Shown: positions 10,193-43,708 of the stretch, in pieces
Layout of the letters: the number at the start of each line of letters is the position of its first letter
Position numbering within the stretch: the first letter of the stretch is position 1
Origin: Botryllus schlosseri
Lineage: Eukaryota
Length of the DNA: 64,000 nt
Assembly (NCBI GenBank): GCA_051294905.1
Contig: JBPPKV010000017.1
Span: 1,302,001 to 1,366,000, forward strand
Direction of reading: 5' to 3'
Notes under the pieces: model-generated
Database searches by the model: none
What the model saw: the letters and a program-made list of their open reading frames with translations, nothing else
What the model was told of the DNA's origin: nothing
Made by a program: the position numbers and the translations under genes

Positions 10193-10602
10193 ATCTGACG
10201 CAACCAACTATTCATCAATCAACTATTAGTGAGAAAAAAGAGTTATAAATATTATAGTAGCCTTCAATAAAATTGATTTCTGTTAAATGGGTCTCATCGA
10301 ATTTTCAGGTTGGCCACCCACCAGCAATAAGATTACTCACAAAAGCATCTAAATCAGTTTCGCTTTCAAGATATCAGATGGCGTAATTGATGCTTACAAA
10401 TGTTCGAATCTCAATCTGTCCTAATTTTCCAAGCTTTTTTACGCTCATCCACAGGTGCAAAAACCTAAGCAGCTAGTCAGTACCTGAATATTGCGCATTG
10501 GCGGAAGTTTGATTAGACCTTAGTATGCAGTACTGTCTCACTATGCTCGCAAAACCTGTTAACAATCAACCATCAAACAAACGAAAAACAGTGGAATAAC
10601 TG

Positions 10603-11887
10603 CAGAGGTGGTCAAAGTAGCCAAGAAAGCTACTCAAGTAGAAGTAGAAGTAGCGACGGAAAAATCTACTCAAGTACAAGTAGAAGTACTTCTTTCATAA
10701 GCAACCTAAAACTACTTGAAGTAGAAGTAGAATTGACTGACTTTAAAAGTACTCAAGTAAGTAAGTAGTTGTGAAAACGATTCTGATTGGATGGATTATA
10801 AAAAGGTGCAAATTGAGCTATGTGATTGGTGACGAGCTTGATTCATATTGACACATACCCGCAGGTATCCAATTTTGGATAGCATAAGCATTCGTCCGCA
10901 TCATGGGATGAAAATGATAGTATTGAAAAGGCAACGCGAAACTAATCCTCTGTTTTCTGGAACATCACGTATTAGAAAGTAGCATGGTTTAGCGCCATCC
11001 CCCATATTATACGGCCCGTAGTTTAGTCAAAGAGCAATACGGAGAAGTTGTATAGGATACGGTGTAAACACTTTGCGCTATTAGTAAACGTTAATAAAAA
11101 TATAGTGGGCCGTAAAAATGCCATATTATGTAGCTTTATTTCCAGAAATTAAAGGCATTACTGCACTTGCTTTTATACTTCAACATGTATGTTATCCGGA
11201 CAAAAGAACTGATATTAATTATAACTCAAAGTATATGATACTGGGAATTGAAAGTGAAATATAAATACTACTTCTAAAAGCAGAATATGTATTTCATGTT
11301 TTTAGTCCAGAAAGTTTCAAAGGTGGTATGCTAAAACAGCTCTAAAACTAAAAAAGAAAGTCAAAGTCCACTCTTTCAGATCAGGACACACCATGGACAT
11401 ATATGCTAGCTAGATTACGATATGACAAGACAATGCTAGATTGCGAAACATCAGTTTCAAACGTTATGATGAGCCATATATACTTTGATTAATTATTTCA
11501 TATGGGCGAAGGGCGACAATGTGGTGTGAACGGAACCACGCCAACCTTCCACCTAAATGATATTCACCGATACTTTCGTGAAATCATACTGGTCACTCAG
11601 TATCCACTGCGCGCGAAGCGCGACGAAAATTCTGTGCTTTACTAAACTTGTTAATACTCCGTGAAAACATCTCCGAAATTCCTCAGGCTATCTTCCTGAT
11701 TGAAAGATTGAACTACTTCTACTTGACAAACTGAAAATAGCGAAAAGTAAGTAAGTAGATCACCAAATATTAAGAAGTAGAAGTAGAAGTAGCGAAAATC
11801 AGATTTACTTGAGTAAGTACCAGAAGTATAGGAAAACTACTTGAGTACTTCGAAAAAGTAGAAGTACTTCGTTACTGACCACCTCTG
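10603..11887 (+). mobile_element. hAT-type MITE, 1285 bp (AGTAG subterminal-repeat family)
   Basis: TIRs CAGAGGTGGTCA / TGACCACCTCTG; perfect 8-bp TSD AATAACTG; homologous along its length to 41070-42197 in the opposite orientation. Confidence 0.9.
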
Positions 11888-29538: not shown

Positions 29539-32220
29539 CTATAGAGTATGACTGGAGTGACGACTCGATTGTTCTCCCATTGTTAGCCGGCAGAATGGTC
29601 ACGGTCAGATGGCTGCACCCAAAACAGGATAGCTCAGTGCTTGTTTCAATGGCGTTCAAGGCGATTGGTCTGTATTTCTTGAAGTTGCGGCGGACTTAGT
29701 TAGACAGTTCAACATTTAGGTAGCGGTGGCGAGTCGTTATGACTAGTGAATATTACCGTGTAGCCTATGTTACATTTCTCACGAGATTGATGTGATATTG
29801 TGGCTTTGATCATTTATAGACTTTGCTACGTATATAAATATAATGACAGAAGGTATAATATAGAATATCTGGTTCGTGTGCAGCGGCTATTGTGAGATGA
29901 ATTCATGGAAAGGACGACAGAAGAATACTACAAAGTGAACAAGTGGAAAGATCTTGAACTATATCTATATGCAGTTCACAATATCTTTGATTGAAAATAT
30001 GTCCTAGATATTAACTGCAGAAATTCGAGTACGAATATAACAAATAATATCGCAACAGTCTTGTGGTCTTGTATGCCTGTGCGATTGTCTAATAACCGCA
30101 GAAACTTTAGTATGACTAGAACCAGGGCTTTGTGTAATGTTAATGTTCTGCTTGATCTCGATTCACAATAGTCAGCTCAGAGCTTACTCCTAGGAAGTAT
30201 GCAAAATCGCACTTGAATGGAACTCGTTGTCTACTAGAATACCCTGAAATTCGCGTGGAAGATCTCGACATTTGTAGAAAGCCAATGCACTACGTCAAGT
30301 TTCGACTAACACATTGGTTTCTTTTTTTAGGTAGGGAATATCAATGTGGATAGGCAACATTTGCCACAGAGAGAAAAAACTACAATACTAACACGGGTCC
30401 ATCTACTTCGTGAATGTCGGCAATGTCGGCGCAATGTCTACTAACACTACCAGAAAATACATTCGCTGCATCTTTTCCTGGTCACGGGTTCCTGGCAGAC
30501 TTTTGTCCAAGGATTTTGATCACCATAAGCATATGTTGTATTGGCACCTATCCCTCTCTTTATAGCCTTACGCTGGCATAAAGGCATTTACTGGGTAACT
30601 GACTTGGCTAATATCTGGATTCCTGCTGCATCTCATCAAAGACCACTGTTAAAAGGCAATCATTAATTCAGGTCAACATTCTTGAATAATATTAATGAAT
30701 GTCAACTGAAGTTACCAAAGATACAAATGCTGCTTCCAGAATATCTTGTGTTAAGACTCTGAAAGATACTGGTTCCATAACACCATTCAAAAGCCAAATT
30801 GCTAGCTTGACCATGTTCTTGGTCCATATTTGTATGGAACTCTGAACTTGGTGTTCACTTTTGGCCTTCTTGAAATTGGATGTAAATTTCACCTACTTGT
30901 TACTAGTGGTAACTAGAGTGGAACCACATAGTCGGGTGGTTATAATGGGGCCCATGAACATGGATGTATTTCCTGCCAAAAATCTCAACATTCGTAACAG
31001 ATATGCTGGAAAATATAAGAATATTTCAATCTCAAAATTGCTTCGTGGGCCGGATGAATTCGTGTGGCGGGCCGGAGGCGGCCCGCGGGTCGTATCTTTG
31101 AAACCCCTGCTTTACATTATAGTAAACCCCACAGTGATAGCAGTAGCAATTGTCAAATTGGTAAAGAAATATCATGGCTTATACAATTCCAACAATAACA
31201 GGTAAAGAAATACCATGGCTTATACAATTCCAACAATAACAAAAAAGCGAAGACTTTCAACAGCATCATCATTGAAACAAGAGATTTGAAAGTATAGAAA
31301 ATGGTGCTAAAAGAGCATATTGTTCATTATTTTAAGCTATCTCGCTAACATTTGGAAGACTTTTTTTGCTTCTCGTGCAATGCAAACTTCGCAAAATTGT
31401 GAGAACAGATGTTATTCAAGTGTTTCTTTGCCTTGTCCATGACATCCTCAACCTCATTTGGCTCTGAACCAAATTGAAGTGATACAGTGTAAATCAATTC
31501 GTTATAGAATGGATCGCATTGAATTGCCTCAAGTACCCTGAAAAAATTCATCTTTTTCAGGGGTTTGGTAATTTCTTTACTGTGGATAACATAAAAGCGG
31601 AGAACTATGCCATGAAACTGTTCAGACAGGCTCTTCAATCCACCCTCTTTCTTCTACATCACTTTAATGAGGTTTCCCGATGGCGCTGCAGTTGTTACTT
31701 GTTAGGCATGTGGCAATTGCTTCGTTGGCTTGCTTAGAAATGGCTCCCAAAAGCATTCCACCAATATATTGAAGTATGTCTAAAAACACATCAAAGTTTT
31801 TCCATAGAAAGGCCAAGTATAGGCAAAATACTCACCAGATTCCTTGCTGTTGACTCCAATGTCTGTGATTGGATGCTGCTCTTTACTCTGCCAGTCATCC
31901 CCAAATGCCAAAGTGACGCGGCCGAATGAGCCATGACACCGACTACTATGCGTGACTAATTATCATCTAATTCTGGCGAAAAATATAACAGAGGCTACAC
32001 GGTATTATTCACTAGTCATAACGACTCGCCGCCGCTACCTAAATGTTCAACTGTTTAACTAAATCCGACGCAACTTCAAGAAATACACGGCGAATCGCCT
32101 TGAACGCCATTGAAACAAGCACTGAACGATCCTGTTTTGGGTGCAGCCATCTGACCGTGACCATTCTGCCGGCTAACAATGGGAGAACAATCGAGTCGTC
32201 ACTCCAGTCATACTCTATAG
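29539..32220. mobile_element. DNA transposon derivative with ~228-bp terminal inverted repeats (2.7 kb), superfamily unresolved
   Basis: 29539-29766 matches the reverse complement of 31992-32220 with few mismatches. Left flank reads CACTATAG (29537). Interior holds a decayed minus-strand spliced ORF. Confidence 0.85.
30340..31920 (-). pseudogene. Decayed transposon-borne gene: P-element C-terminal-like motif and a Cys-rich, possibly PHD-like end
   Basis: Exon ending at ~31836 (GTGAG donor); next exon ILQYIGGMLLGAI..C L..LIKVM*KKEGGLKSLSE; distal KVCQEP..CSEC..W..HCADI..CGKC. Interrupted by a MITE end (to 31109) and a 41-bp tandem duplication (31160-31241). Confidence 0.45.
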
Positions 32221-34067: not shown

Positions 34068-34200
34068 TACTACAGTATACACATTTTGGAACTAATGCAT
34101 TGTCTACCAACATTACCCGTTCATGGTGATCACCTATGTTACTCAGTCTTTTCATACGTCATCCTTTTTCTTTTATTTTTCTCTCGAATTGCCATTCCAT

Positions 34201-34480
34201 GACTCAACTATTTTCTAGTTACAAGGTTTCACTTTTTTCAGTTTACTCCAATTATGCACAATTCGTGCTACATTTGCTATCTATTATATACGTGACTCAG
34301 CTGATTTCTAGTTACGAGGTTTCACTTTTTTTCAGTTTACGCCAATTATGCACAATTCGTGCTACATTTGCTATCTATTATATACGTGACTCAGCTGATT
34401 TCTAGTTACGAGGTTTCACTTTTTTCAGTTTACGCCAATTATGCACAATTCGTGCTACATTTGCTATCTATTATATACGT
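34201..34480. repeat. Tandem repeat, 93-94-bp unit, 3 near-identical copies (partial 4th at ~34545-34580)
   Basis: Units start gactca at 34201, 34294 and 34388. Confidence 0.9.
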
Positions 34481-34754
34481 CGCAGTGCCTTTCCTATTTT
34501 TCTGTGTTACATATCATACTTACCATTACTCAGCTTATATTTAGTTAGTTACGAGGTTTCAGTTTTTCCATTTACGCCCAGTTCACTTGAAACCTATTAC
34601 AAACAATGCGTCGCCGGGATTATTTTTGTACGCCTGATACCTATCACAGATTTACTTAACGATTTACCACAATTATAACATCACACTTCACTAAAATTCC
34701 TATACAAACTAAATACATCTTGTATTTACAAGTAAATTTTAAGAATCAATTCTG

Positions 34755-37700
34755 TTACCTTACAATTCTGTAATTCTCCGTTGTGTTCCGTAGTACTCTT
34801 ATCGCCATCCCTTGCTCTGCTCCGTTTCGTCTCCTCGTGTTCCTCGTGCGACTTAAGGTTCTACGTCGACGACACTTTATATAACTTACCCATATCACAG
34901 TCAACAGAGCAATCAACCCTGTTACCGCCATTATTACAGCCACTGGTTCCAGTGTAAGTATCAGTTTCGCACCTTCCATAATCGTCCTATCGGTCAAAGA
35001 TAAGCCTCCTACCTTATATCCGTCTTCCATCCTCACCATTTTGTGTAGCCGTCAAATTTGTGGTTGTCTTTCCCGCGGTGGTTCTTGATAGTCTGGGATA
35101 TTCAGGTGCGGACGTTTCGAGCCCTTGGTTTTTCTGCCCAGTCTATAGCGATGCGTCATCCATCGTTGACGTCAAGATAGTAGTCATTAGTTCGACACTC
35201 TTCGTGGATGAGTCGTCGTTGTTGTCACCTGATAAATACAAAATGAATGTTTCGGTACTTGCCTTATGGTTGTGATCCGGATCTTGGTAGTCCGTTCCGA
35301 TGCCAATCCCGCCGTCATCCGTGGAGTCCTGAAGAGCGTCCGTAGTGGTAACTGGAAGTACACGCGTTGCCCTAGGTGCTTCACCGCTGGTTTGCATCGT
35401 TTTCTCGGGTTGGTTACGTGCGCGAGTTTGCAACTGCTGCCTCCCATGAGCAGCAGTCACAGTTTGTATTCTTTTACATGCATCGGTTGCGATCGTGTAA
35501 CTTACACCAGCGTCGTTTCCATCCGCCATACCAGAGCTATGGGTAGTAGGTGTTTCAGCGTTGTAGTGCACGAATCATGGGCTTTCGCCGCTGGAGTTAT
35601 CCACGTCTAACTGTAGTAAGCGATCATGTACACGTCTTGGGAAGGGGGTTTTCTTGTTACCATCGAGTGCGGCTCGCCTTGTCTTGTAGTCATTCATTCG
35701 TTTTCTCAGGAACAACAAAAATAGCCAATTTTCATTCGGCAAAACCTTGTTCAATAATACCAAAATCAGTTATTATCTATTGCTTCCTTTAGTGCCTTCG
35801 CCTGACCCTCCCGCGTCAGTTTATAAGGGCCAGAAACGAAAGGCTTGGTCGAGGGGTTCTTACGTTCGATGTCGCATTGGTATTTCATGGATTGGGGGGC
35901 GCTGAGGTGGCCCCGCAGGTCATCAAGTTCGGAAGTAAACTGGATCATAAACGGCTGTCAAGACTCCTTCAGGAATGGCGATATTTTCTAGGCTATAGTC
36001 AAAAGTCAGGAGTTTTGTATGACAGTTTCGCCAGTGCTACCGATTGTGCACAGATACTTTTGAGTTCCGTCTTCACGCTGGGACTGGTGTCTTGTTGTAA
36101 GGTCACATAGTAATTGGGCCAGTTATTGGCCCAATGCGAATCTCGTGATGAACGGGGTTTTGGTGTTGGTGGAGAGAGGGCGAGGTTCTTCGTTTTCAGC
36201 GGGGATTCCCGACCTATTCAATCTGACCTCTGATCTCGGCGTGTGCCCACGCCTACTGTCACGCCGGCGGACTCGGTCGCCGCCGGGGGCCCGTTTCTGG
36301 GGAGACGTGCATCTTAAAATCCCCAGACTCCTTGCCGGACATGACCGGGCGTGTATCCGGTTGACCGACAATAGCTGCTTCGTTTGAACCTTTTGGTAAA
36401 TTACTCATAACTGTGGCTGTCGTCATGCATCTTTGGGTCGAATTGTTACAGTTATTCGGACAAGTGCATCCACGAGAGCTTTCAGGACCAGTTTTCTCGT
36501 GCAGGTCCTTATTTACGTCAGCCGGGATTCCGCGCTCGACGTCTTCATTATTGGTGCCGTCAGGGATTCCTGACTCGACACATCTTTAGTTAGTGCCAAC
36601 AGTGCTAACTGACCCGACACTTTCTCGACTAGTGCCAGCAGGGGCTACCTGACCCAACACTAGGGATTTCCCATATTTTTTGACGTTTTGGGAAAGAAGG
36701 TAAGACAGTTGCCGTCGTAAGATCGGCGTATTTATGATTGGTGCCAGCAGGGATTCCTGACTCGACACATTTCGCGCCAGTGGTGATTACCATCTCGACA
36801 CTTGCGCCAGCGGCCTGCGGCGACACAGACAACGTGCCGGCTCGACGCTTATTTGATTTGCAGCTTCCATCAACCCATCATCGGTTACAGTGTCGCGAAG
36901 ACTGCTTCCGACTTTGGTTCCGTCCCCTTGATCACACGAGATCCAGTCATGAAGCGTTACTAAAGACAACTCTTCGTTTGCATTAGGCGGAGATTCAAAT
37001 TCAGTCGCTATGTTTGGTAATTGTTGTACCTGATCAATCCATTTTAGAACTACTATATCGAGAGGTCTCCTTTCTCGATCGTAAACGGAGCCGATAGTCC
37101 GTCGAAATTGATTATTACTAAGGAGTCAACGTGGGAGGAGTCACCCATATCACGTAGTTTTATGTCTATAGGTTGTCGCTCCTCCCAGCTTGGCGGGTAT
37201 TTGGTTTCGACAACGTTTTTCAATCTGAGGACGCTTCCCGTGCCGGCGCAGAATTTCGTACCAGTTGTGACCCTTCGACGATCTTTTCTTTTCATAGATT
37301 GGCGTTCGCAGATAGTAAGGAGGTAATCGATGTGTTCGTCTTCAGACTCTCCCCCATCCACTGAAATTGCCAAGAAATGACGCTGAGCCCCGGAAGACCA
37401 GTTGGTGCCTCCATTTGATTATAGTGTAGCTTCATGGCGCTTGCCATGCAAGTATTCCACACTTGGTTCGATTTACTTCACAGAGCTCAACCCCATCTCC
37501 TGGCTTTTCCACATTTTTCCACACCCCTTATACAACCCGGTTTTGTCGACGTTGATTATAACATTGGTTGTAGATAGATTGATCGAACGAAGCAGTGACC
37601 TTGGAAGGTCCAGCGGCTCAAATTATTCATACAATAGACAAGCCCCTTGGCTTAATTCAACCAACATACTCCAATAATTATCATGCAGACAGCAATGAAG

Positions 37701-37928
37701 TATCTATGCAAAACTCGGTTAAGTTGGCACACGGAACATACGTCAATCACAACACGAGTCAAGATTTAACCTATTCATATTCATGCACGATTAATAACAG
37801 TTCAATACTCCAAGGTGTGTTTACACCATAAATATGACGGTATTTCCTGTCGACAATATACATGCATATAATACACAAGAAATATGCCAAACGATGCCAC
37901 AAAAAAAACAATACCACACAGAGTTCAA
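34755..37928 (-). pseudogene. Decayed intronless type-I membrane glycoprotein-like ORF (~1050 codons)
   Basis: Collinear ORF fragments linked by stops and frameshifts: hydrophobic N-terminus (NSVWYCFFCGIVWHISCVLYACILSTG), Cys-containing segments, CVESGIP(A/D)GTN repeats, Thr/Ser-rich stalk, TM PVAVIMAVTGLIALLTVIWVSYI, basic tail KCRRRRTLSRTRNTRRR. No homologue recognised. Confidence 0.55.
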
Positions 37929-37988
37929 GTTGACCAATTTGCCGACCTCCTTGTTTATAAGAGTTCCCCAATCTTCCAGATGCAGATA

Positions 37989-38495
37989 TCAAACCGCAAT
38001 TAGTCCAGGAACCGACCCCTTGTTTGAGTCGTTAGGATCATCAAGTAGCCTACTTGCGTGCTGTCGATTCGGAGATTGGGCATTCCAAGTCCAACAGAAC
38101 GCGGGGTTTGTTGAGGGTTCGTTGTAACGATATTCCGAATGCAATACCTCTATGTTCTTGGCTCTTTCCATCTTTAGCTCATCGGCTTTATGGAGCGATT
38201 CCAGCAAATTTAATCGAGCTTCTTCATTTATGTATACATTGCAATTTCGGTTAGCAGTCGCTCCCATTTCATCGCACTGCTTTATTTCTGTATACTTTGC
38301 AACTGCAGCAAGCAGCCGTTCCAATCAATAACATGTCAAGATTTTTCAGAGGGACATCGGAACATCACCCTTCAATCTCAAAAGACGTCAAAGCCTTCCG
38401 CAATGCCTCCGTCAATGTCCGGTTTTCTCGATATAGTCTGCTACTGGATGCTTCGTTTGGGGCTCTGTTTCAGATTGGCGAATTTACACTGGCAT
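37989..38495 (-). pseudogene. Decayed intronless ORF of unknown function upstream of the glycoprotein-like ORF
   Basis: 111-codon open stretch (38324-37989), in frame with an ATG at 38495 through several stops; TATAAA about 50 nt upstream (~38547-38552). Confidence 0.35.
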
Positions 38496-39599
38496 AGAGT
38501 CACAAGTTCGCCGAAACTATAGCGGACGCACCGATGTCGTCTTTATATGCAATAATTGGATACTACAACTGAGTGTACAATTCATGTGGACATCATACAA
38601 GGCATAGATATGCATACATATATCAGTCATACTTCGGCTCACTGTAAAAGCTCGCATACATGAAAAAATGGTGGCGCCATATTTGGTTAAGCAAACTGAT
38701 GGTATAGCTAACACTTAACATGCATACGACACAGTCCCAGATAAGCACAAAATGATACCATCTCACTTATAATAGTCATATGTGAACCAATATCCTACTT
38801 GTAATCATGCTATATTCCTTAATTTCCAGTATTGGTGTGCTTAAGCTTTTTTATTCATTCGTATATATCGTGCTTTATAGGCAATAGACTATAGGCTTAT
38901 CGCGAATTTCGAACTCACATATGCTCCAATGCCTTACCCCAAGAGGTCTTTAAATACCCATGTTTCTATTGTCCTATGGTCCATTACACATCAAATTTCC
39001 AAACTTTTGTCCCGTTGGGGTGAAGGGTCCTGACACTAGTATAGGGGCGGGGTCAGTTATGACGCCTTATTAATACCTACAGTTGTAGTACTCGCTATTA
39101 AATTACTGCAGTAACAACCAACTATTCTCATATTAAATGTTCATAACTTGTACCTATATTTAAGACATGTTAGCGTCATCTTAAAGCAATATGATGGTAA
39201 ATGTCAAAGATTAGGTAAATGCAGTACTTGAACAATATAAGAAAGATAGGCGTCACGTTGCAATAATACGTCATAGTAAACCCTCCCATGAAAATACCCT
39301 TTTGCAGATTCATTTTTGCCAATACCGTAAACTTCATAGTTCATACACGTCATGATTGCAATACGACAAAATGCCGCTCGTCAGGCGCATTCACTTCGTA
39401 AAGTGAATACGCGGACAAAGCGGGTTTTAGGCTAGTGTCATATTCCATCATCGACACATCAGTTTCGAAAAACGAATGTGTGGATAAGTTCAACCATGGG
39501 TTACTTTTCTAAGGTCTTTATATTAGCAGTACTGGCCTGAAGTATTCCTAATGTTATAGGCCTATTAATTCCGGTTATATAATATTTCTGTATTTATTG

Positions 39600-39820
39600 T
39601 AGTTGGTGCCTAAAACGTTTTGGAAAGTCTGTCGATATCTTGGTCTAAAGACCAAGGTATCGATCCATTATTTTAGTAGCCCTAATCGTTTTGGAAAGTA
39701 TATCGGTCTTCTCCAGGGTCTACCACCGATGGTACCGATCTATAGTACAATAGTAGCCCTAAACTTTTGTAATCTATGTCGGTCTTCTCCAAGGCTACCA
39801 CCGAGGTACCGATCTAGCAA
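39600..39820. repeat. Degenerate ~76-bp tandem repeat (~3 copies) with palindromic GGTACC/GATC motifs
   Basis: tagtagcccta at 39674/39750; tcggtcttctcca at 39703/39779; ggtaccgatcta in both later units. Confidence 0.7.
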
Positions 39821-41069
39821 TTTGACATCTGCTGACATTGTGGTTGGCGACTAGATAGTCGGCAACTATACTGGCGCTTCAGCGCTACGACGTAAAATCG
39901 AAACAAGGCCCAATATGTGTGACAACACAAAATGGGCATAGTCGCCAACGAACTGACTCGCTGCTCCATGACCATTTACAGCGACTCCACAGGGGCATTG
40001 ACGTCCTGATCATAATGGTATTGAGTGTATTGACCTTGCCGGAATAGTAGCGCTTGTGACGTTCAGATATAGGTAAATATATTTTCAGTTTGAGTCAGAC
40101 CCGGACAACTAGAAAATTTTCAGCTTTTCCTAATTAGATGAGATTTAGAGCTATACAGCTTTTCCAAATTATGTTAAAATTAGAATTAGAGCTACGCAGC
40201 TTTATCCAAATTAGATTAGAATTAGATTACTTGCATTTCGTTCTAATTCAGTGAAATTAGACAACTAGAATTATTTAGTTGTGCAAGCCTGGTTCACTAA
40301 AACCACTAAACAAGAATGCTCTAAAATGCTGACAAAACCATGGAATGTACAAAGGCACCCGCCTTATTGTCGGCATGAATATGCTCAGAGAACGGCACAT
40401 ATTTATTGACGCACTGCGATACTACACATTTACAACGCCGCAACATACCCTACGGAAACTTTATCGCTGCTAGTGATTATTTGTCATCCTCACTAACTCT
40501 TGGTCCTAGTTCGGCCCATGTAAGCTTACACGAAATAATAGGGCGTTTTTCGGCATATTCAAATCTTGTCTGGAGTCAGGCTCACTTTCAACTAGACACT
40601 TTCATCTCGCCAAATCTGTCGCAGCCAATTACTTACGCGACAGGATAGTTAGTACGACTGCTCTGGATCGCAGTTTCGTGGTGTTTTGAAATGATGAAAA
40701 TATTATTAAAACTGATTGACTAAACGCGGCATAAGCACTCGTCATTTCCTGCTTTTATATCTCTGGACATTAGTATCTCTGGACTTTAATTCAACTATAC
40801 TAACTGTCCTACTCGAATTTTCGCGTAAATGAATTACATGCTTTTCGTATTGATTATTCGAGCGGGTTTCTGCAGATATGGATCAATACCGTTAAGCATG
40901 ATCCGTTTTGAATACTATCGATAAAACGTATTAATATAGTGTAGCCTTCTTTGTTTCATCCATGGCGACTAGGACTATATACCGCGCATGTTTGAGAACA
41001 AACGGCAATATTCGCGAAGGATTTCATATGTCATCACCCGTTCGAATTACACAGATTATGTCTGAAAGC

Positions 41070-42197
41070 GAGAGGTGGTCAGTAACAAAGTACTTCTACT
41101 TTTTGGGATTACTCAAGTAGTTTACCTCTACTTCCGGCACTTATTCAAGTAGATCTGATTTCCTCTACTTCTACTTCTACTTCGTAATATTGTGTGATCT
41201 ACTTACTTACTTTTCGCTATTTCCAGTTTGTCAAGTAGAAGTAGTCTAATCCCCAATACGAACGATAACTTGAGGAATTCCGCGGCTGTTTTCATGGAGT
41301 ACCAACATTTAATATTCATAAAGTCAAGCAAAGCCCAGAAATTTTATTGCGCTTCGCGCATAGTAGTGAAGGAGTGACAAATATGTTTTCATGAAAGTAT
41401 CAGTGAATGTAATTTACGTACCGGATTGCTTGGTTCCTCTCACACCGCATTGTCGCCCATATCAAATATTTCATCACAGTAAATAAGATCCACCACAACA
41501 TTTGAAACTACCGTTTCGCAATCTAGCAATCACCTATCATATCGTAATCTAGCAGCCCATTAAGTGTCTTGATAATCTGAAAACTCCAGCTTTTTTGAAC
41601 GTTACACCTGTTTTAGCAGATGACCTTTTAAGCTTTGTAGACAAAATACAGGAATTATATTCTCTGCTTTTTAGAAGTGGTATTTGTATTTCATTTTAAT
41701 TAACGTATAATAATAACGCAAAGTGATGTAACCGTATCCGATACATTTTCTACGTATTGCTCTTCGCCTAAACTTGTGGCCTTATAATATGGGGTAGGGC
41801 GCCATCTCATGATATTCTCTAAAAACGGGGTGTTCCAGTAAACAAAAGATAAGTATCGCATTTTCATATCAGTACTATAATTTGCATCCCATGATGCGAA
41901 ACAATACTTATTATGTTGAAAATTGATACCTCCTGGGATGCATCAATACGAATCAAACTCCCTGCACGTGCCGCATAGCTCAATTTGCAGCTTTTGACAG
42001 TCCATGCGAACGAATTGAGGCTGTTCTCAAAACTACTTACTTACTTGAGTAGATATAAAGTCAGTTAATTCTACTTCTACTTCAAGTAGTTTTAGGTGGC
42101 TTATTGAAGAAGTACTTCTACTTGTACTTGAGTAGATTTTCCGTCGCTACTTCTACTTCTACTTGAGTAGCTTTCTTGACTACTTCCTACACCTCTG
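41070..42197 (-). mobile_element. hAT-type MITE, second copy of the 10603-11887 family
   Basis: Reverse-complement homology over ~1.1 kb; eroded TIRs; degenerate TSD ctgaaagc/ctgatatc. Confidence 0.85.
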
Positions 42198-43708
42198 CTG
42201 ATATCATCCATTAGTCAAATTTTCTCTTTGCGGTGCAAGAACCAGGCGACTTGACGCGCACTATACTTCACGCGCGTATACAGCCGACCAAACCTCCAAC
42301 CTTCTAGGACTGCAACTACGTTTAGCGCTGCCACACGAAATATTTCTTAAAGGTACTCAACTTCGTGCTGTGATCTTTGCCGTATAGACTCGGTGCAAGA
42401 ATGTCCGCCTTGCTCCTGTGTTCTTTCTAAGCTTCAATTCCTTCTGCTCCGTGTTGCGAGTCCAGATCGGACTGAATAGACTTGTGATGTGCGGCTGATT
42501 ATATGCATTTCTGATTCAAAAAATAAAATAGGACTTCCATCACTTAACAGTTGGTAATTAATTTTGGACCTAGCTCGTGACAAGTTATTCTCTCTTTATC
42601 TATTATGAATCATAGTTCGTGGACCCACCGTGCCCATTGAACAATTGTTTTTTGGCTTCATCAGCCACCAAAATGGCATGACTGCGTGCACGAGTTGATC
42701 TCCCTCATCATCATAAATGACCCATTATCACGACTTCGTGCGCGGGCAGAAATGACTAAGTGTCACGACTCGCGCTCGTCTCCTTATTTATACCGTTTCA
42801 GGTACGTGACAACGGGAGGACACAGATAATACTGCGCGAATGATCGGGTTCTTATTGTATCTCCCTTATAAAGATGAAATCATAATTCACATTTTCCTAC
42901 GCGCTATGTTAAGCAATCCTGACAACGCATGCTCACAATCGCCAGCACACGGCGTTTTTTTCACCCGCGTGAATGAAGATTCAAATTGAGTGTGAATTTA
43001 GGATCACGTACAATTGTCGTTTTTTCTAACGTGAGTTTATCGAACTAATTTCAACAGTAATCCCAAATGTCATGTATTACCGTATGTATTGAGAAAAAAC
43101 GCAACTACATGTCGCATTACTTTGGTAAATTAAAAGTCGGCTGCACGCCGTGATATTAAATTTGCCGCAACGATAGTTCTTCGCATCTCATTCGAGTTAC
43201 CATATGGCATCCATTATGAAATTTGACTCCTTATAACTTCCTGAATTTGCACCGCACACCAAGATTTAACGGTTATTCATTCTCTCAGGCCAGGTTAAAA
43301 CTGTACTTGCCGCAGCCCGCCAACTATACAGCCGGCGAGTTCATATTTCGCTCTAATTAAAATGGCCGACACATCATTCCTCTGGTCATTTTTGGTTGTT
43401 TCTAGCAATTATCCTCGGTACACGTATACCGCATTAATACCTTCAAGTTCAGATCCTTCTACACTACATTTCCACCATTTTCTTTACGCTTATACGTCAA
43501 ATTTAGGTGGTATTAAATTTATTTGTTCCATATAAGTTCAAATAAACTTCAATAAATCATATGCTTCGTCATATACACTTCTTTCATAACCATTCTCTCG
43601 AATTTCAAACAGTGTTCTCCGTGTAAAGTAGGTATTAAATATGTAGGCCGATATTGTATTGATCCTGACTTCATACTTCGTGTTATCATTAACAGGTCCA
43701 TAATCATA

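Follow-up and report, generated by a model that had tools for sequence, protein, structure and literature searches.

The 64,000-nucleotide stretch of Botryllus schlosseri DNA analysed here (assembly GCA_051294905.1, contig JBPPKV010000017.1, positions 1,302,001 to 1,366,000; hereafter the window) carries at window positions 34088-43649, on the minus strand, a 9.6-kb repeat that is, judging from its sequence, an internally deleted, dead, non-autonomous copy of a large retroelement family. Intact relatives in the same genome encode Gag, Pol, an envelope protein (Env), a second glycoprotein (GP2) and a separate Merlin/IS1595-type transposase, and the family very probably has a hybrid anatomy of retroelement and DNA transposon. 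We assign a probability of roughly 0.6 to the reading that it replicates by tRNA-primed reverse transcription and integrates from circular DNA via the transposase, a cycle that we infer and that was observed neither as a circle nor as a splice junction. A preliminary description of positions 34755-38495 had proposed a virus-like relic, decayed and without introns, that finishes in the tail of a type-I glycoprotein. Relic and tail stand, while the kind of element was misjudged: the proposed 3.7-kb unit is only part of the 9.6-kb dispersed repeat, which has its own ends and target-site duplications.

The element in the window

Used as a query against the same genome, positions 34700-38600 yielded 45 matches, which come from 39 of 356 scored candidates. 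At least 28 other places cover nearly all of this stretch at 89-94% identity, and the similarity to the sister copies extends beyond it to 34088 and 43649. The element consists of the following parts.

34088-43649, minus strand: whole non-autonomous copy with ends GG...CC, left terminus eroded
34088-34292, minus strand: right end with a short imperfect terminal inverted repeat, common with the 38-kb intact relatives
34200-34480, no strand assigned: three tandem 94-bp subterminal repeats, the number of which differs among copies
34773-35567, minus strand: GP2 tail with mucin-like stalk, transmembrane (TM) helix and basic tail, residues 768-1044 of 1045
35523-35654, minus strand: RNase H scrap of Pol, residues 859-902, sitting at a deletion joint
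35693-37268, minus strand: front half of pol, broken, residues 72-554, with protease region, spacer with CVESGIP repeats and N-terminus of the reverse transcriptase (RT)
37398-37413, minus strand: degenerate primer-binding site for host tRNA-Thr(AGT), gag being deleted behind it
37651-37675, minus strand: host spliced leader in degenerate form, likely the start of R in a single internal region resembling a long terminal repeat (LTR)
37651-39816, minus strand: non-coding region, likely U3/promoter, with blocks common to intact relatives upstream of gag
38324-37992, minus strand: 111-aa frame inside the non-coding region, matching neither Pfam nor the five intact proteins
41071-42228, no strand assigned: nested unrelated repeat with a second copy at window 10575-11886
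43102-43649, minus strand: left end, 84% identical to that of a 38-kb intact relative

The minus-strand coding fragments are collinear and intronless, as had been described, and have a G+C content of 48-51% compared with about 40% around them. They also derive from real ancestral frames, since intact proteins of long relatives align to them with 52-80% identity. When the five intact proteins are mapped onto the window, there remain Pol residues 72-554 (tblastn, 59-80% to intact Pol P0004), the RNase H scrap and GP2 residues 768-1044 (55-68% to intact GP2 P0008, with stops and changes of frame interrupting it); this mapping finds no gag, transposase or env. Domains are assigned from the Pfam matches of intact P0004, and the window's own fragments gave nothing above the Pfam cut-offs. 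What had appeared as a single long glycoprotein with a signal peptide is Pol at 37268-35693 and 35654-35523 and glycoprotein only at 35567-34773; intact Pol shows no hydrophobic peak in its hydropathy profile. The repeated CVESGIP peptide, correctly noticed at 36536-36583 and 36723-36770, belongs to the Pol spacer between protease and RT, and the RT that was said not to be adjacent has its N-terminus inside the described cassette (35939-35693). The Thr-rich stalk, the one hydrophobic helix (about 34878-34943) and the Arg-rich tail were recognized properly.

Stops had been thought to fall where Trp would be expected, and only two of the seven in aligned parts face a Trp of the relative. TATAAA does occur at 38547 and 37959; the two TATA-ATG genes derived from it were not confirmed. 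Four TATAAA lie in 34700-38600 as compared with 1.8 in shuffled sequences, the second motif is followed by non-coding cis-sequence, and the 111-aa frame is without a match to Pfam or to the five intact proteins. Within the non-coding region, the blocks 37651-37853, 38829-38930, 39001-39298 and 39377-39816 are 70-80% identical to long relatives, and all 20 short copies checked have retained the 10-nt core of the primer site. An LTR pair around the cassette and terminal direct repeats are both absent.

Ends, target-site duplications and copy number

The terminal sequences are GGTTC... and ...GTTCC. In 44 stretches examined, the right end was found in 43 and both ends in 31. Thirty of these 31 short copies are flanked by an exact 8-bp target-site duplication (TSD), which is shifted by one base in the remaining one, and the right terminus has 55 exact occurrences in the genome. 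Exact 8-bp TSDs also flank six of 11 long stretches, plus the element C3a, and an empty site with a single copy of the 8-mer was found: one element sits in the gag of another, the sister copy of which is unoccupied. The flanks of the window copy agree at five of eight bases, and its right flank (34080-34087) is identical to the TSD of the short copy L057. The ends of long elements agree with each other at only 8-11 of the first 16 positions; the criterion for Merlin is a terminal inverted repeat (TIR) of 24-462 bp. A Helitron reading of the right end was dropped once the left end and the TSDs had emerged.

Short copies are strongly mosaic. Their pol and GP2 remnants have a ratio of nonsynonymous to synonymous polymorphism (pN/pS) of about 0.7, uncorrected and from overlapping segments, and no sign of selection was found on a chimeric frame of 330-350 aa that is open in some of them. 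One short copy (L004/L015) bears a nested insertion of about 1.2 kb with a separate Merlin-like transposase fragment. Members of the family lie nested in and clustered beside one another at C16:20.59-20.69 Mb, C5:27.00-27.08 Mb and C7:28.29 Mb. Intronless frames of 1294 and 426 aa, with only weak Pox_F12L, RAP and zinc-finger matches, lie in or beside another copy (L064:422-5966, minus strand).

Intact relatives and their proteins

Long open frames are present in two of 20 further loci carrying the right terminus. These two intact relatives measure 38.3 and 38.4 kb, have 8-bp duplications and contain five terminal frames.

Gag, 956 aa: putative zinc knuckle
Pol (P0004), 1165 aa: RVT_1, RNase H (RT_RNaseH) and Tpt1/KptA domain (PTS_2-RNA); no integrase
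Transposase, 349 aa: DDE_Tnp_IS1595 at 50.2 bits (cut-off 27)
Env (P0007), 857 aa from the ATG: class-I-type layout
GP2 (P0008), 1045 aa: mucin stalk and TM segment

DDE_Tnp_IS1595 lies above the cut-off in three more transposases. For Gag, zf-CCHC scored 20.5 and 21.5 bits (cut-off 20.8), the Atlas neighbours include Retrotrans_gag at 0.92 with 108 shared features, and a single-sequence model of the capsid is all helical, its confidence (pLDDT 47) being too poor for a fold search. All 12 Pols have the order protease (PR)-RT-RNase H with DTG/DSG, YIDD and RNase H motifs. None of five Pols scanned contains the integrase domain rve; the protein terminates with PTS_2-RNA followed by a stop. The Tpt1-like domain exceeds the Pfam cut-off in three other subfamilies and gives a profile match to solved Tpt1 structures. 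The RT profile hits Ty3 RT, the best PDB match, with an E value of 1.5e-34 and PDB 8r0s, which we take to be a caulimovirus enzyme, with 2e-33.

Env starts with a signal, has RRRKR followed by a hydrophobic peak at 504, long helices at 507-714 and a TM segment at 796, and this layout is preserved in homologues from other assemblies. Signal, basic cleavage site, fusion peptide, heptad helices and TM segment make up the layout of class I fusion proteins, and at the level of sequence Env has such a predicted layout with furin site, fusion peptide, heptads and TM segment. The Atlas leads for Env are haemagglutinin, spike and F at 0.84-0.85, and one of 36 members matches Foamy_virus_ENV (E 1.2e-5). 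The N-terminal domain of GP2 shows weak similarity to the surface domain of Env (E 7e-8 to 1e-14 in comparisons between subfamilies) and its stalk consists of 26% Thr+Ser; a Pfam scan yielded no named homologue.

Accessory genes include those for BIR-RING and leucine-rich repeat (LRR) proteins and a second transposase. An LRR protein and a RING protein with three BIR domains are encoded in the C1a/C5a and C1b accessory regions (L097, L100, L085), which also hold several frames that are paralogous to each other and weakly similar to PWP3A-B_C.

Linkage, gene order and selection

The genome holds 51 transposase matches (54-100% identity) and at least 60 Env matches (from 53 scored candidates). 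A same-strand RT lies within 80 kb of 50 of the 51 transposase matches and, conversely, a transposase is near 55 of 59 long RT frames, the 59 having been hand-picked from 150 rows for long frames or identity to the intact family. Whole elements delimited by exact duplications (six of the 11 long stretches) span 14.7-40.1 kb, and long relatives lack paired LTRs.

In 42 of the 51 cases the order is transposase-env-GP2-accessory genes-gag-pol. Seven show gag-pol-transposase-env-GP2; an eighth counted as such is a neighbouring element. Pol precedes the transposase in two separate lineages, and the gene order, as read from these loci, is circularly permuted between subfamilies. Distances of Pol, transposase and Gag are correlated among 11 elements (rho 0.90-0.93; Pol-transposase 0.93), Env reaching 0.62-0.65. 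Where synonymous divergence is unsaturated, dN/dS amounts to 0.10-0.27 for gag, pol, transposase and env and to 0.39-0.50 for GP2, which indicates that the intact genes are under purifying selection.

Signs of an RNA step

A TGG motif is present 232-441 nt before gag in each of the 11 long stretches. Seven of them match host tRNA-Thr(AGT) or tRNA-Ile(AAT) over 18-19 nt, one over 15 nt and two over 10 nt, while one has no assigned tRNA. Between the primer site and the gag ATG, long elements also have a conserved small hydrophobic upstream frame. Nine of the 11 long stretches contain, 214-252 nt upstream of the primer site, a 23-mer that does not vary among them and is identical with the spliced leader listed as 'Chordata 1' in Table 1 of PMC3795323. 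The 23-mer occurs 287 times in the genome. Among 20 leader loci sampled, six belong to this family, three are two-LTR elements and three continue with GTAAG and resemble a leader-RNA gene. The 'Chordata 1' leader is one of stolidobranch ascidians, which points to a tunicate host.

The two-LTR elements (L148, L150 and L153; C1:40.61 Mb, C2:25.73 Mb and C5:5.78 Mb) are about 2.2-2.4 kb long, contain the leader within each 409-bp LTR and the primer site after the first LTR, and possess a polypurine tract. It seems common in this genome for ordinary LTR elements to have captured the leader. Because these elements show the same arrangement, leader plus primer site marks R-U5-primer-binding site, and their single occurrence in the middle of our long elements likely represents a single internal LTR. 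Together, these signs point to an RNA step in transposition.

A gag-pol query returned no RNA dataset listed as containing a match, and RNA depth on the left end of C5a is 0-1.8 beyond the first kilobase. On a whole short copy, one single-cell run covers a single strand (depth 22.7 as compared with 0) immediately before the primer site, and its depth at the right end is 8-16. This is compatible with transcript ends at these places, subject to library type and internal priming, and is not counted as support.

A possible gag-transposase splice and a possible circle

In nine of 12 transposase genes no ATG precedes the conserved N-terminus; these have a pyrimidine tract with CAG exactly 17 nt ahead of it, while the three most divergent, basal genes have an ATG there. 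A donor scan of gag and pol produced six conserved candidates. Only one, CAA G|GT GAG in gag, is in matching phase, and it is codon-invariant in all nine elements without ATG; for comparison, invariance is seen in 12 of 126 two-fold gag codons and in 2 of 99 four-fold ones. Two basal copies and two metagenome relatives also preserve AAG|GT.

The acceptor of transposase-first elements is located 286-346 nt from the left end, and the four elements checked have no common donor between left end and acceptor. Splicing would thus need an RNA that crosses the joined ends. Permutation and split transposase would together imply a circle, as we infer from the arrangement of the genes.

Relatives beyond this genome

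Besides P0009, the Pol profile retrieved nine close proteins (E<1e-150) that lack an integrase, five of them with a precomputed Tpt1 domain, and Env has 39 homologues outside. Contigs of identical size suggest that P0073 is linked to the Env homologue P0034, P0070 to P0038, and the transposase P0121 to the Env P0028. Of three metagenome loci examined, L110 is a gag-pol-env locus and possibly represents a transposase-less sister lineage. At L110:1713-1967 (Ga0210059_1010986) a perfect 27-bp inverted repeat precedes a motif like a primer site, presumably for initiator tRNA, and then gag-pol-env.

In a quick tree of 44 rows, 17 integrase-less Pols (nine outside and eight own) are set apart together by a long branch (SH-aLRT 99). 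This tree contains no retroviral or caulimoviral rows and no P0017, and a long-branch warning applies to it. IMG/VR scans with P0009 and the Pol alignment found no relatives. We encountered no description of such an element in the literature searched; Repbase, subscription journals and supplements were outside this search, and an entry may exist there.

Apart from the family, the window contains at 29539-32220 a 2.7-kb element with inverted arms of about 260 bp (88-98% complementary), likely a non-autonomous DNA transposon.

Possible life cycle and alternative explanations

According to the reading that we favor, an inserted element would give a circle in which its ends are joined, either by release or by copying. 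From a promoter that lies upstream of gag would come a genome-length RNA to which the host spliced leader is added and which runs round the circle and ends past its own start. Reverse transcription primed by tRNA-Thr or tRNA-Ile would yield DNA with one LTR-like region. In younger subfamilies the transposase would be made as a spliced Gag-transposase fusion and hence be packaged; it would cut at the joined ends and insert the element with an 8-bp duplication, and Env and GP2 would allow cell entry. The short family of the window, with its kept ends, leader/primer region and scraps of pol and GP2, would be mobilised by the proteins of intact copies, and the value of the window copy lies in revealing which cis-parts a mobilised copy retains. 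Joined ends and one splice junction are predictions of the hybrid reading.

Several observations speak against this cycle. Ends were not found for five of the 11 long stretches. Joined ends have no match in the assembly and did not appear among the 15 joints listed of 157 on a whole short copy, and in a linkage-decay comparison of 31 short copies neither a circular nor an RNA map came out ahead of a linear map (rho -0.24, -0.24 and -0.28). The interval from leader to primer site holds no conserved poly(A) hexamer, a conserved polypurine tract was not detected within 900 nt, RNA depth over transposase and env is near zero, and no spliced read was seen. Fold searches with Env yielded no known fusogen, with no Foldseek match at E<=0.001 and otherwise only generic coiled coils, which is no evidence of a new fold. 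The metagenome relative L110 lacks an LTR pair, an integrase and a transposase in its 13.9 kb. Finally, the ATG-bearing transposase of the three basal elements and the second one of the C5a type leave a DNA-only route open.

It is unlikely, though more plausible than the other alternatives, that the family is a giant Merlin DNA transposon moving by cut-and-paste, with the retrovirus-like module as long-held cargo that makes particles or RNA and is not needed for insertion. Ends, TSD and transposase fit the Merlin definition, short copies without intact genes have spread, some subfamilies carry the second, ATG-bearing transposase and host-like cargo (BIR-RING, LRR), and no circle was seen. However, selection on RT, RNase H and protease, primer sites alternating between exact matches to tRNA-Thr and to tRNA-Ile, the DNA-fixed spliced leader, the split transposase and the retention of leader and primer site in short copies would all be left unexplained.

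We regard as slightly less probable still an exogenous or episomal, pararetrovirus-like enveloped virus of the host group, for which the circle would be the normal genome and the insertions a latent state or side branch, comparable to Teratorn. This explanation differs from the favored one mainly in emphasis. It accommodates the two glycoproteins, the anti-apoptosis cargo, the permutation, an RT about equally close to 8r0s and Ty3, and the L110 contig without integrase and transposase, but IMG/VR holds no relatives, and about 50 inserted open-frame copies with a co-diverging transposase suggest that the family has resided in the germ line for a long time. The original proposals, namely a segment of a DNA virus, env as a cargo gene or a host mucin that was retrocopied, are highly improbable: the tail is indeed a piece of a mucin-stalk/TM glycoprotein without named homologue, but it belongs to the second glycoprotein, the fusion-type Env being deleted from this copy, most of the long open reading frame and about two thirds of the aligned coding length are pol, which refutes this view by protein mapping, and the unit is a repeat with defined ends.

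Returning to a tRNA-primed, circle-based cycle, it is conceivable, and here we are more tentative, that the family constitutes an undescribed lineage of enveloped animal reverse-transcribing elements that may have lost the retroviral integrase and paired LTRs and kept a single leader-marked internal LTR, and that would go through a DNA circle and insert by means of a captured Merlin/IS1595 transposase made as a spliced Gag fusion. Classifications separate retroelements, with an RNA step and an integrase or recombinase, from cut-and-paste DNA transposons. A deep-branching RT is here combined with an IS1595-type enzyme, in dozens of open-frame copies and with integrase-less relatives in other assemblies. 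If true, this would be a new integration route for reverse-transcribing genomes, at sizes up to 40 kb, and a temperate-phage-like cycle bridging class I and class II mobile elements.

Comparison with known systems

Ty3/gypsy elements (Metaviridae, errantiviruses; available text of PMC13524379) likewise have gag, a PR-RT-RNase H pol, an envelope-like gene and a tRNA primer site, and the family shares with them the primer-binding site upstream of gag. It differs in a Pol with a Tpt1-like domain instead of an integrase, in the lack of paired LTRs, and in GG..CC ends with 8-bp TSD and a separate Merlin transposase instead of TG..CA LTRs with TSDs of 4-6 bp. Over long alignments, its RT shares no more than 27% identity with gypsy Pols that bear an integrase, and the available text of PMC13524379 has no occurrence of Merlin, transposase or Tpt1.

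The Caulimoviridae (as covered in the available part of PMC12440569) have an integrase-less PR-RT-RNase H, one promoter/primer region and a circular map in common with the family, which is distinguished by an animal host, envelope genes, its own transposase and precise insertion. DIRS elements (same part of PMC12440569) similarly pair an LTR-type RT with a non-retroviral integrating enzyme. They use a tyrosine recombinase and have no protease, whereas the family has a DDE transposase, protease, env and TSDs. The circular intermediate of DIRS elements is a further parallel to the cycle proposed here. Teratorn is reportedly a herpesvirus fused to piggyBac, in which a DNA transposase delimits and inserts a virus-like genome; it is a DNA virus, while our family carries reverse-transcribing machinery.

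Troyka was considered and rejected, as it has CG..CG LTR termini, a 3-bp TSD and an integrase (PMC12440569, available part) as opposed to GG..CC and 8 bp. In the same part of this 2025 survey of virus-like retroelements, no group appears with a separately encoded IS1595-type transposase. Merlin/IS1595 elements, defined by terminal GG and a TSD of 8-9 bp (available part of PMC8101967), share with the family DDE_Tnp_IS1595, terminal GG and the 8-bp TSD, and imperfect TIRs such as those seen here are reported there for one Merlin family. The family stands apart from Merlin by its size of 15-40 kb, by gag-pol-env under selection, by primer site and leader, and by a transposase that has no ATG of its own in nine of 12 cases.

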